Source: a phage. Taken from it: a DNA stretch of 64,000 bases. Position numbers and translations under genes: made by a program. The stretch lies in NCBI GenBank assembly GCA_012646185.1, contig GCA_012646185.1_4706.1; one strand, given 5' to 3'. A model generated the notes under the pieces. It searched no databases. It was given only the letters and a program-made list of their open reading frames with translations, and was not told the DNA's origin. This document shows, piece after piece, positions 2,330-37,233 of the stretch; position 1 is the first letter of the stretch, and each line of letters starts with the position of its first letter.

Positions 2330-3655
2330 TCACTTCAAAAGCTTAGACACCGCCATGCTTCGCGCCATCGCAACGTCATACGCATCCATGATCGCGTCAC
2401 CGATAGCGGTATGACGGATCAACGGAATACCCATATCTGGATACTCTTTGGTGCCTAAGATGGATACCGGTTTGTCTTGATACGCGGCAACCATCGAACG
2501 AATATCCTGAACCTGGTTATAACGGCAGATTGGTTTGAAGCCCGCTTTACGGAACCAATGCTCTAATTGCGGCCAATCTGTTTCACCACGAGCAAGATAA
2601 TAGAAGGTATCTTTACCGTAGTATTCGGTCATTTTGTCACGAATACTGTTGACGAACGCATTTACTTCGGCGATGGCTTCTTTATAACCCATTGCCTTAC
2701 AATGTTGAAAACAATAGTCGCGCGCTTCCTTTGGTGCTTTGGTTTGCCACCATTCTACTGTTGATTCACTGATACGACCACCGTCAGCGATTTGACCATG
2801 AACGTCAGGGAAGATATCTATACGCGGACCGTTAACAATGGATTCTGGATTAGCCAGATCGAAGAACACGATACCGATTTCCAGCAATACTCCATTCTTT
2901 TCCAGACTAAGGTTTTCAACATCTAAACAAAATGCGGGCTTCTCTACCGCTAACGGCTCGAACGAATGGTTGCTGGTATCCGATTCGGTTTTAAGTTCGA
3001 CGACAGCCGGATCGGTATCCGTAGGTTTCAGTTCTACTACAGCATCATCGAGTCCCGATAACGAAAAATAGTCTTCGAAGAAATCGGATATCGTCATACC
3101 ATGCAAATTGATATCGCAATCTTCCAACCATTGCTTCAACTGGTGCTCACCGGCATGAATCGCTAAACGGCACGGTCCGGAACGATCATCTAGCGCTGCA
3201 TCGATCCAGAAGAAAGCGCGTATAAGTAAGTAAGGATTATACTCCGCGATGATTTCTTGGCTAGCCGAGAAATCGTACACCATTAGTTGTATTATTCCCT
3301 TACGCGTGTTATACGGATCAACTTTCAATCGACGCACTATTTCTTCTACGAATTCCAACGCGCGCGTGTACGAGGTGGACCCACCTTGTTCATACGAACA
3401 TATACCCGTCAAAAGTTCCTTATAGGACGCATATGGAACCATAGGCGATAATTTGTACGACAGTTCAGTATTGTAATTATCGCATAATTTCTTCGGGGCG
3501 ATAGCATCCTGTATCGCTGTAATAAACGCCGGTCCATCAATATCAAACAACCATCCTTGACGCCGGTATGCAGTGTACCGTAATAACGCACCGATAACTG
3601 CCTGGGGCGGTGTATATTCTTTCCCGTTAATTTCAAACAGTAGTTTGCTCATCAT
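2330..3655 (-). CDS. protein with C-terminal DEDDh-type 3'-5' exonuclease domain
   Basis: 441-aa ORF; Exo I-like FCLDVENLS, Exo III-like RHTAIGDAIMDAYD (H-x-A-x-x-D-A); internal repeat AVVELK x2. Confidence 0.55.
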   Translation of the reverse strand: MMSKLLFEINGKEYTPPQAVIGALLRYTAYRRQGWLFDIDGPAFITAIQDAIAPKKLCDNYNTELSYKLSPMVPYASYKELLTGICSYEQGGSTSYTRALEFVEEIVRRLKVDPYNTRKGIIQLMVYDFSASQEIIAEYNPYLLIRAFFWIDAALDDRSGPCRLAIHAGEHQLKQWLEDCDINLHGMTISDFFEDYFSLSGLDDAVVELKPTDTDPAVVELKTESDTSNHSFEPLAVEKPAFCLDVENLSLEKNGVLLEIGIVFFDLANPESIVNGPRIDIFPDVHGQIADGGRISESTVEWWQTKAPKEARDYCFQHCKAMGYKEAIAEVNAFVNSIRDKMTEYYGKDTFYYLARGETDWPQLEHWFRKAGFKPICRYNQVQDIRSMVAAYQDKPVSILGTKEYPDMGIPLIRHTAIGDAIMDAYDVAMARSMAVSKLLK

Positions 3656-35032: not shown

Positions 35033-35257
35033 TTAGCAATGGTTGTTAGTTGCTTCTATTTCATCAAGATACGGTTCTACGTCATCGCCCTCCACGAATT
35101 CGTTGAACCAACAGTCAATGGTAGAAATAACCGGTGACTGGTGTTCACATTTCTTAGATACCTTAAAAGGCACGTTATTATCCATCATACCGAGTTCGGG
35201 TCGAAAACGCCCGAAATGTTTCGCAGTCCAAATGTCTGGGACGATATGGTTGTTCAT
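35033..35257 (-). CDS. RNA polymerase beta-prime N-terminal subunit, exon 3 (proposed)
   Basis: Encodes MNNHIVPD...GMMDNN, matching the beta-prime sequence that follows NADFDGD (MAVHVP / MNLHVP, then LMMSTNN); exact 5' boundary uncertain. Confidence 0.5.
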   Translation of the reverse strand: MNNHIVPDIWTAKHFGRFRPELGMMDNNVPFKVSKKCEHQSPVISTIDCWFNEFVEGDDVEPYLDEIEATNNHC

Positions 35258-35617
35258 CAAAATCTTCAGTATGAATCGCTACTTCATACCCGCAGCATTA
35301 CCTGCAGCTCCTGGTGTTACCAGGATGTTGAGAGTATATCATGCCCATATTCCAAATGGAACGTAGGACTTCCGCGCTGGATCTCGCTTGAGACCACTTA
35401 CTCGTTGAACGTTCTCCTAAACGGAGCTTCGCTGCTGATTGGACATTGTTACGTACGGTAGGCGTCCCATTAAAGGGATTTTCATTGAAGCCGCGTACAT
35501 CCGTTACCTTGTTTCTACCTTATCGGTTCCTCTTACGAGGCGTAACGGCTTTAGCCTATTCCAGCAATTCACGGAATGCATATTCTCCTTTTCAGGAGAT
35601 AAGGCCATGGCTCTGGC
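35258..35617 (-). ncRNA. putative self-splicing intron 1 (ORF-less, group I-like), boundaries approximate
   Basis: About 360-nt hairpin-rich sequence between DFDGD codons and resumption of beta-prime homology; tandem relative of intron 2. Confidence 0.5.
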
Positions 35618-35632
35618 ATCACCGTCAAAGTC
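35618..35632 (-). CDS. RNA polymerase beta-prime micro-exon encoding DFDGD (proposed)
   Basis: Minus-strand codons GAC TTT GAC GGT GAT; flanked by the two intron copies; exon 1 ends ...GYNA. Confidence 0.5.
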
Positions 35633-35982
35633 CACATATCTTCAGTATGAATCGCTACTTCATACCCGCAGCATTACCTGCAGCTCCTGGTGTTACCAGG
35701 ACGGAGAGATCATCTCATCACCCACGAAGGGTGTTCCGCGCTACCCTCAGCGAATTCGAGGGACATGATCGTTGAACCTTCCACCGATAATCGGTGGCTA
35801 GGCTGCTGATTAAACATTGTACGTTGGGGTGGCATCCTGGTTCAGGACTGTCGTTGAAGCCTCCCAACATCCACTCACTTATTTCCGCCTTATCGGCTCC
35901 CATAAGGGCAGAGTGGCTTTAGCCCGTCTCAGCAATTCACGGAATTCAAGCTCTTCCTTTCAGAAGGCAGGGCCTCATCTGA
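35633..35982 (-). ncRNA. putative self-splicing intron 2 (ORF-less, group I-like), boundaries approximate
   Basis: Follows the codon for Ala of ...KGYNA (exon ends in U); RNA ends in G just before GAC of DFDGD; track ORF reads 17 codons into it then stops. Confidence 0.5.
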
Positions 35983-37233
35983 AGCATTGTATCCCTTAAG
36001 GATCATCACGCTTAACCCGATGGTGTTATCCTGCGGATCGCGTTTAACCTTGGTGATTTCAAGACATTGGTTACTGCTTCGGTCAAGTGATGGGTTTCGA
36101 ACAAAGCCGCACACAATCCCATCGAACGGCGTATCAGCAATAAGCTCATCGTGCAGCTCGCTCATCATCGGATGATAATTACGGACATGTTCCGCAACGA
36201 ACGCACGCGCTGCTCTCGGTGAGTAACCACGATGGAATAACTTGGATTGGATATGTTCTTTATTGGTTAAAGTAAATGGTGCGTATGGGAAATGCAGATG
36301 ATAATAACGATGGTTCGCTGTTATCGAACTGATTACGGTACGCGTGGTGAATGGATGTAATGTACCTAATATGTTTTTACGTGTAATACCTTTCTTCTTA
36401 CCGATGAACTCATCGAAAATCGCTGCGTGGTATTGCAGTAGCTTCAATTGCACTTTCGCCATCCAGTTTTCTTTCTTTCTGGCGCTCAAAGGTGTTGTTG
36501 GATGATAGATACTGTTCAACGTACCAATAGCATCGATCGCACCTTCCATTTTGCTATCCGCATAACGACCGGTCGGCGTATTTTCGATAACGAACATCAT
36601 GGCTGCAGGAAAGCTGATATACTGACTGAAGAACTTATCACGATGGATACGGATGAATTCTCGTAGCGTGTCAACTTTCTCCATGTTCTTCGGTCCACGT
36701 AACGTCGGTCCTTTATACAAGATCTCCATGATGCGATCGAAGTTCTGTATAAAGCTATTTACGCCACGCCGTATCCCGAATACATCGAATTGCTGCTCCA
36801 GATAGTTCTTGAGTTCGATGGGTCGTTTTACATTTGGACGGTAACTGGCATCAATGAGCCACGTCATCGTTTCAAAGCTTTTGATATTCAACTCGCTTGC
36901 CAGCACGAGATGGACCAACGGGTTAATGAACGCATCGATTCCTTCAGGAACGCGCGCCCAAACCGTCGAACGAATCTCTTGTTCTGCTGGGTAGGTTACA
37001 ACCGTTTTACAGTTTGGACACACCGTGCCGAGTAGCTCACCACGATTGTAGAAACCACAACCACATTGTGGTGTGATATCCAACGTATCGCTGGAGTAAA
37101 CACGGGTGATAAAACTGTTTAATTTCTTCTTCTCTTCGACGACTTTTGTATCGTAATCATTCAACAAAATCGGCGTGAAAGGAAGTTCTGCGAGCTGTCT
37201 ATCGAAACTCACGATATCGAGCATGATGGCCAT
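35983..37233 (-). CDS. RNA polymerase beta-prime N-terminal subunit, exon 1
   Basis: Zn-finger CGCGFYNRGELLGTVCPNCKTVV (compare CxCGKY...C..CGVEV); NPSLDRSS (compare NRQPSLHK / NRAPTLHR); IGLSVMILKGYNA (compare LNLSVTSPYNA) immediately before the missing DFDGD. Confidence 0.65.

Follow-up and report, generated by a model that had tools for sequence, protein, structure and literature searches.

The window analysed here is a stretch of 64,000 nucleotides of phage DNA (GenBank assembly GCA_012646185.1, contig GCA_012646185.1_4706.1). Its minus strand carries the gene for the beta'-N subunit of the non-virion RNA polymerase (nvRNAP) of a Goslar-like nucleus-forming jumbo phage. The gene is interrupted by two tandem group I introns, denoted A and B, that are separated by a micro-exon coding for the catalytic loop. 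The first-pass annotation had proposed that splicing across both introns might yield a catalytically dead subunit, and the interval it assigned to this event, 35258–35982, coincides exactly with the outer borders of the two introns. The gene is organized as follows:

35983–37233, minus strand: exon 1 of the nvRNAP beta'-N gene, identified by its open reading frame (ORF) and translation; 417 codons, ending with ...ILKGYNA, the last codon being GCT
35633–35982, minus strand: intron A, group I, 350 nt, no ORF; 5' splice site after GCU (U·G wobble), terminal G
35615–35632, minus strand: micro-exon, 18 nt, GACTTTGACGGTGATGCC, coding for DFDGDA (catalytic Mg-binding Asp triad plus Ala)
35258–35614, minus strand: intron B, group I, 357 nt, no ORF; 5' splice site after GCC (C-G pair), terminal G
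35033–35257, minus strand: exon 3, MNNHIVPD...NNHC, stop codon included, beginning exactly at ATG

The protein encoded by exon 1 matches PHROG 2987, 'RNA polymerase beta subunit' (E = 6e-131). There is also a match to gp55 of phiKZ (structure 7OGP, 7OGP_A; E = 2.5e-73), with the NADFDGD motif aligned, and Pfam domain PF00623 is present in homologues of the product. Precise removal of the introns restores the ORF and yields a 497-aa protein, colinear with the intron-less alleles and homologues and with phiKZ gp55. The surrounding 24 kb are 97.4% identical to Escherichia phage Goslar, and the chimallin gene is situated directly upstream of the beta'-N gene.

The micro-exon had been described as 15 nt coding for DFDGD. 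It does carry the catalytic Asp triad, but its real size, as seen from alleles with intron A alone and from homologues, is 18 nt, coding for DFDGDA. Two metagenomic genomes of 238–240 kb, L128 and L152, have intron A at 99% identity, and their second site is empty; the sequence runs ...AATGCT, then A, then GACTTTGACGG(C/T)GACGC(A/G)ATGAACAACCAT, that is, NADFDGDAMNNH, uninterrupted. DFDGDA followed by MNNH is seen in all other alleles too, including those that contain only S1 or only G1 (introns of other sub-families, described below), and the nearest intron-less homologues, P0002 and P0003, have DFDGD[A/E]MN. At the other border, alleles without intron A read AATGC(C/A)GA(C/T)TT without interruption. 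The 18-nt border also provides regular pairing: in the guide of intron B, 5'-CAU-G-GC-3', GGC pairs with GCC of the exon and CAU (35609–35607) pairs with AUG of exon 3, forming a regular P10. The 15-nt variant was rejected, as it would create a U×C mismatch at the splice site, leave no P10, and make the protein one residue shorter than in all alleles and homologues. Hence, with a micro-exon of 18 nt, intron B starts at 35614 and not at 35617. Since 18, as well as 15, is a multiple of three, the product of skipping would be in frame, ...ILKGYNA followed by MNNHIVPD..., 491 aa in total. The junction of exons 1 and 3 (GYNA, then MNNH) would remove DFDGDA, and to this extent the premises of the proposed subunit without catalytic aspartates are correct.

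The homology of the two introns, which the same proposal took as its starting point, is clear: A and B are 71% identical over about 355 nt (blastn, E = 1e-31), and both keep the group I fold. The direct-repeat blocks shared by the two measure 81 nt (93% identical), 60 nt (77%), 34 nt (76%) and 24 nt (83%). The spacing of these repeats is 368–376 bp, and identical stretches reach about 68 nt. In a search of 951 nt, the Rfam model RF00028 (group I intron) matched B with 27.4 bits (E = 9e-5) and A with 23.1 bits (E = 1.7e-3), the gathering score being 50. At gathering thresholds, Rfam yields no match anywhere in the 64-kb window, and in the E-value mode the two RF00028 matches, on A and B, are the sole ones in the whole window.

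The fold was derived from seven aligned copies: two genomes supplied A, two supplied B, and three supplied the orthologue of B seen in Goslar-type alleles, denoted G2. The RNAalifold consensus, with P7 added by hand, comprises 105 pairs; as controls, the pairing partners were slid. The consensus features P1, P2, P3, P4, an extended P5 domain, P6/P6a, P7, an extra hairpin, P8, P9, P9.1 and P9.2. Standard pairs are found in 98.2% of the cells, compared to 37–42% in the slid controls, and changes on both sides are observed in 33 of the 105 pairs, compared to 1–3 in the controls. The conserved pairing and the covariation thus indicate that both introns are under selection to fold and that neither is a decaying relic. 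Motifs similar to P, Q, R and S are visible in the alignment (AAUUGCUGG, AAUCAGCAGC, GUUCAACGA and GAUAUACUCU). The omega-G is present in both introns directly before the exon, A ending with ...AUAUGUG and B with ...GAUUUUG. A search of the ORF list revealed no ORF longer than 61 aa, homing endonucleases included, inside A or B. The U·G wobble at the 5' splice site, formed by exon GCU with the guide GGC, is seen in all copies of A. The cleavage-site pair of B is atypical, but all other defining features are there, so that B is still classed among the group I introns. We conclude that A and B are group I introns, for which self-splicing is predicted. Their main structural elements are:

35972–35985, minus strand: P1 of intron A, exon GCU and intron UC with the guide GAGGC; only three exon base pairs
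35598–35623, minus strand: extended P1 of intron B, GGUGAUGCCA (35623–35614) with UGGCCUUAUC (35607–35598); ten positions
35708–35770, minus strand: P7 of intron A, GAUCAU (35770–35765) with AUGAUC (35713–35708), enclosing the extra hairpin, P3' and P8
35332–35403, minus strand: P7 of intron B, GAGUA(A) (35403–35398) with (A)UACUC (35337–35332)
35645–35701, minus strand: P9-P9.1-P9.2 of intron A, nearly identical to the domain of B
35269–35325, minus strand: P9-P9.1-P9.2 of intron B, nearly identical to the domain of A

The extra hairpin is inserted between P7 and P3' in both introns (35744–35762 and 35380–35395), and the differences between A and B are compensated in six of its six pairs. The 16-mer core ATTCCGTGAATTGCTG (P3–P4) is found at 35562–35577 and 35930–35945. 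It also occurs in at least 120 contigs of IMG/VR (L003–L122 among them), and in several of these it is present twice, at distances of 338, 592 or 1000 nt. In L051, the one such contig checked, two small introns of the A/B family interrupt a capsid-like gene, and the exon between them, at about 100 nt, is not a micro-exon.

Related genomes were collected from four sources: a phage collection, IMG/VR, metagenomes, and assemblies encoding an identical exon-3 peptide. Copies of intron A with 97–100% identity are present in L095, L128, L152, L174 and L167, and B is 87% identical to positions 2994–3348 of the Goslar sequence L001, that is, to the unannotated second intron of Goslar, G2, which is its orthologue. 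The 20 resolved alleles of near-identical Goslar-like genomes feature nine intron configurations, with up to three introns per gene:

G1 with an HNH gene, and G2: Goslar
S1, G1 and G2: L002, L068, L132, L139, L142
A and B: the window, L095, L174
A alone: L128, L152
S1 alone: L169, L175, L177
S1 and G1: L168
G1 alone: L173
S1 and G1 with another HNH gene (HNH'): L170
G1 with the HNH' gene, alone: L171, L172, L176

Here S1 and G1 also belong to the group I introns, but to other sub-families, with RF00028 scores of 31 and 47 bits, respectively; in some alleles the neighbouring G1 family contains HNH genes. All these introns occupy four insertion sites within 31 nt of the coding sequence (YNADFDGDA):

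site 1: after GGGT
site 2: after GCT, the Ala codon of NA|D; the site of intron A
site 3: after GA(C/T)TT
site 4: after the Ala codon following DFDGD; the site of B and G2

Introns are therefore present or absent at the same site in otherwise near-identical genomes, the flanks being 97.4% identical. Intron A was never found together with S1 or G1 in the 20 alleles. The micro-exons are 13 nt in the configurations {G1+HNH, G2} and {S1, G1}, 13 and 13 nt in {S1, G1, G2}, and 18 nt in {A, B}. Only the last one is in frame, and skipping in the other multi-intron configurations shifts the frame; in Goslar, the skipped product would end with ...NADL and a stop codon. Neither the arrangement nor the frame of the skippable exon is conserved among relatives, as A occurs alone in some of them, and others have 13-nt exons out of frame.

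The pattern extends beyond close relatives. In more distant chimalliviruses, the ORFs of about 15 of the 56 homologues break off inside NADFDGD (after NAD, DFD, DFDG or DFDGD). In the distant example L162, the gene has one intron, which lies after GGT and contains an HNH gene. Active-site codons of essential phage genes are known as places where introns occur (PMC12908238, PMC11620839), and polymerase genes of chimalliviruses have already been reported to contain introns (PMC11077065). A literature search combining DFDGD, group I introns and phages retrieved no paper, hence no description of the NADFDGDA hot spot was found.

Judging by sequence comparison, A, B and G2 are related as a mosaic. 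The identities differ sharply by region:

P1–P2, A versus G2: 81%
P1–P2, B versus A or G2: 54–57%
core, B versus G2: 88–97%
core, A versus B: 43–65%
P9–P9.2, A versus B in the window: 95% (58/61)
P9–P9.2, A versus B in L095: 84% (51/61)

The 3'-terminal module, consisting of P9.2 and the tail (GGGUAUGRNGUAGCGANYCAUACUGAAGAU), ends A, B, G2 and the otherwise unrelated S1; it is situated at 35633–35665 and 35258–35289 in the window, at 1165–1212 in L068, and at about 1800–1836 in L002. This shared module, along with the contrast between 58/61 in the window and 51/61 in L095, suggests module exchange or gene conversion between the introns. Introns A and G2 are both inserted after GCU and both have the guide GGC, their sites being 18 nt apart. 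Moreover, the extension of the A guide, CCUGCC (35966–35976), is complementary to GGUG of the micro-exon, that is, to the site-4 exon, and not to the upstream exon of A itself. Since the guide extension fits the exon of the other site, the 5' module (P1–P2) of A may have come from a site-4 intron, and since the core of A is only 39–67% identical to that of G2, this would be a case of module exchange rather than a simple recent copy. The in-frame spacing of A and B requires no selection for an isoform, as both sites lie directly after an Ala codon (GCN) and the two introns share the GGC guide.

We consider it likely that A and B are selfish introns removed by constitutive sequential splicing, with skipping being at most a minor by-product. 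According to this interpretation, they would be paralogous, ORF-less, mobile group I introns at a hot spot, and not a designed splicing switch; they are inserted after two Ala codons 18 nt apart and flank the DFDGDA codons of the catalytic loop. Each ribozyme would fold alone and excise itself. Intron A should be transcribed and able to fold about 375 nt before the 3' splice site of B exists, and, as the first to be transcribed, it would probably be the first to go. The 18-nt micro-exon would then be retained, producing the active 497-aa subunit, and the joining of exon 1 to exon 3 would most likely be a minor side reaction, a cost and not a function. The anatomy, the homology, the conserved fold, the exon borders, the polymorphism and the differences in pairing and energy are shown by the data, whereas the sequence in which the introns are spliced, the rarity of skipping and its lack of a regulatory role are inferred.

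The pairing and energy comparisons speak against skipping. P7, the guanosine-binding helix, is orthogonal in the two introns: the A×A and B×B combinations have energies of −6.3 and −5.6 kcal/mol, versus 0.0 for A5'×B3' and −1.4 for B5'×A3'. Hence the homology of A and B does not provide an interchangeable core. P2, P5, P6a, the extra hairpin and P8 also differ between A and B, with compensating changes. The native P1 of B is a cis hairpin of −8.9 to −10.1 kcal/mol. Two routes to skipping were considered. Capture of exon 1 by the B guide was rejected, since it yields only three base pairs at +0.9 kcal/mol, compared to −8.9 for the native P1. A chimeric ribozyme formed by the 5' half of A and the 3' half of B is weakened, as the hybrid P7 has mismatches in two of five pairs and an energy of 0.0 kcal/mol; chimeras crossing before P7 stay pair-compatible, P3 being identical. 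By-eye comparisons of P9.0 and P10 gave pairings of 2–4 bp, which is at the chance level, and these were not used as evidence.

Thin and indirect evidence for inclusion of the micro-exon comes from assembled sequences. A contiguous 497-aa ORF on a Logan contig of 8818 nt (P0071) is the Goslar three-exon protein with the predicted junctions, and a consensus three-exon version, likewise a contiguous ORF of 497 aa, is found on a Logan contig of 1864 nt (P0072). Protein-based scans of IMG/VR and of the GTDB representatives yielded no intron-less Goslar-like allele, and the introns are present in the Goslar genome; hence P0071 is most simply read as a spliced transcript, and both contigs are probably assembled spliced transcripts. 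Exact look-ups of the skipped proteins (those of the window, the consensus and Goslar) and of the Goslar product retaining G2 found none of them on record, which is a weak negative. Translation of exon 3 from its own ATG with B left unspliced was rejected as an option, as it leaves a junk tail of 35 aa on the catalytic loop.

Several observations weigh against the interpretation of sequential splicing with little skipping. The P9–P9.2 domains of A and B are 95% identical, P3 is identical and P4 mostly identical. Both guides contain GGC, and GCU at the end of exon 1 offers the B guide a canonical U·G, whereas the own site of B forms C-G; in addition, the B guide pairs with exon 3 (CAU with AUG, P10). 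As the end of exon 1 is the only U·G-capable partner for the B guide, the C-G pair is the one feature that lends the idea of regulatory skipping extra credibility. In the Bacillus phage SIOphi, skipping produces the dominant TerL variant in vitro, and more than 47% of the transcripts of another gene are exon-skipped (PMC11878797). B was never found without A in the 20 alleles, which is a small sample; this could mean that A and B form a pair beyond two independent insertions. Finally, the source of the P0071 and P0072 contigs may be RNA or DNA.

The C-G pair allows for another explanation. The cleavage-site pair of B is C35615–G35606 in the window, L095 and L174, that is, in all three genomes with A and B, whereas its orthologue G2 has U·G in six of six cases. 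The conserved U·G is reported to be required for the first splicing step and not for the second one (Barfod and Cech 1989, a title cited in PMC1920249). The C-G pair might slow or block the first step, and then splicing of B would limit or time production of the subunit, or else would need a helper, either a protein or intron A. The unusually long P1 of B and its absence from alleles lacking A would fit such a handicap. However, the gene is essential and the A+B assemblies are full-length (235–240 kb) and come from several samples, hence B must still be removed, and efficiently enough. Moreover, outside this pair B is clearly constrained in structure, the sample behind the association with A is small, and this family of introns may tolerate C at position −1. 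We regard a handicap of B as unlikely; B may simply tolerate C-G, perhaps helped by the long P1, or else its first step may be slow.

A different possibility is that skipping is programmed, with a regulated fraction of exon 1–exon 3 transcripts producing beta'-N without DFDGDA; built into the polymerase, this inactive or dominant-negative subunit would regulate middle and late transcription. Chemically, it is possible for the upstream 5' splice site to be joined to the downstream 3' splice site, and tandem group I introns of the phages Twort and SIOphi provide precedents (PMC3073962, PMC11878797). The junction of exons 1 and 3 keeps the frame, the two introns resemble each other, their 3' domains being nearly identical, and the combination of A and B with an identical micro-exon is kept in three independent genomes. 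The U·G that the B guide could form with exon 1, compared to C-G at its own site, and the P10 with exon 3 can be read in the same sense. On the other hand, A is alone in some phages, where DFDGDA is constitutive, the sister configurations would produce frameshifts, and the in-frame spacing follows from site specificity. Further, P7 is orthogonal, the cis P1 of B is better than the alternative by about 10 kcal/mol, and no skipped ORF is on record in the exact look-ups. In an essential enzyme, a catalytically dead subunit is also expected to be harmful; in E. coli, substitutions in NADFDGD of beta' are dominant lethal. We hold programmed skipping to be decidedly improbable, and the same applies to its stronger form, in which A and B would be an alternative-splicing device, with the site of B weakened to C-G and exon 1 offering U·G, such that a tunable share of transcripts skips DFDGDA. 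If it were true, the subunit lacking the aspartates would damp or time the activity of the non-virion polymerase inside the phage nucleus. The claim of a built-in route to a regulatory isoform is thus not supported by the comparative evidence, that is, nine configurations, frameshifts elsewhere, site-specific spacing and orthogonal P7.

Loss of the micro-exon might also occur at the DNA level, by recombination between the A and B repeats that leaves one chimeric intron and no micro-exon; this would generate defective genomes and not an RNA isoform. The repeats are 368–376 bp apart, with the identical 16-mer core and the 3' domain identical at 58 of 61 positions, and the whole core of A joined to the 3' tail of B would make an intact intron. 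The short-read contig L167 (Logan SRR10990315) matches the window at 100% identity across exon 1 and nucleotides 1–311 of intron A and ends inside A, the repeat being long enough to confuse assembly. However, there is no deleted allele among the 20, such an allele would be lethal on its own, and recombination would be an additional process rather than an alternative identity of the locus. We consider this explanation very improbable. It is still less credible, to the point of being negligible, that the tandem is an assembly artefact merging A-only and B-only alleles: A-only alleles do exist and repeats can mislead assemblers, but A, the 18-nt micro-exon and B recur in L095 and L174, two long and independent contigs (237.5 and 240 kb), no B-only allele is seen, and the micro-exon of the A+B alleles (GGTGATGCC) differs from that of the A-only ones (GG(C/T)GACGC(A/G)).

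Exon skipping between tandem phage group I introns is already documented as a type of event. The closest case is orf142 of phage Twort, with three group I introns that resemble one another and with some transcripts one exon short (Landthaler and Shub 1999, as described in PMC3073962 and PMC11878797). As far as that description goes, it resembles the beta'-N gene in that one protein-coding gene of a phage harbours several group I introns, related and without ORFs, and an internal exon that can drop out. The differences are that skipping has been observed experimentally in Twort and is inferred here, that the Twort gene encodes a tail tube rather than a polymerase, and that the internal exon here, just 18 nt long, codes for the catalytic loop. 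SIOphi likewise has tandem group I introns and exon skipping in an essential gene (PMC11878797), but the intron clades, the host and the gene are different, skipping is abundant and measured, and no active-site micro-exon is described there.

In Goslar itself (MK327938) the gene is the same, with flanks 97% identical, and its second intron, at 87% identity, is orthologous to B and occupies the same site after DFDGDA. The Goslar annotation of this gene comprises Goslar_00188, an 'Intron_gpI' ncRNA, the NUMOD1/HNH gene Goslar_00186, and Goslar_00185. The first Goslar intron, G1, differs from A: it belongs to another family, contains an HNH endonuclease gene, and is situated 7 nt further downstream. 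The Goslar micro-exon is 13 nt, and leaving it out would cause a frameshift; the splice-site pair of the Goslar intron at site 4 is U·G, that of B is C-G.

In PhiPA3, there is an intron in an RNA polymerase gene that encodes the endonuclease gp210 (PMC11620839) and one in the nvRNAP gene gp65-66 (PMC11077065), at conserved catalytic residues, as here. These are other subunits (beta-like genes) with single introns, and A and B have no ORF, while the gp210 intron encodes an active HNH endonuclease acting in phage-phage competition (PMC11620839). A parallel for the spread of A is given by group I introns at two neighbouring rDNA sites, where shared guide complementarity provides circumstantial evidence for ectopic reverse splicing (PMC3984707). 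Similarly, P1–P2 of A and G2 are 81% identical, the guide is the same, both introns follow GCU, and the guide extension of A matches the exon of the other site. Unlike the rDNA introns, those considered here are in a protein-coding phage gene, and only three exon nucleotides pair at the site of A.

The introns have consequences for annotation. Gene callers report separate 'hypothetical proteins': exon 1 with read-through into the intron (35929–37233) is called as a protein of 434, 449 or 421–423 aa, and exon 3 is called alone as an ORF of 74–81 aa (the 74-aa version being P0057) on 205 public contigs. Many of the exon-3 entries are labelled Salmonella, E. coli, Shigella or Enterobacter; since they stand under bacterial names, contigs of Goslar-like phages must be widespread in bacterial assemblies. 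The beta'-N subunit is thus systematically mis-annotated, split into two or three 'hypothetical proteins', in a group of phages that appears in hundreds of enterobacterial sequencing runs.

The interest of the locus lies mainly in its hot spot and micro-exons and in the C-G pair that B naturally has at its splice site. The 31 nt coding for the NADFDGDA catalytic loop of an essential RNA polymerase that resides in the phage nucleus are a very active hot spot for introns. The locus provides a natural system for the study of spread and module exchange of group I introns, of ribozymes packed around micro-exons, and of tolerance to mis-splicing in an essential gene.

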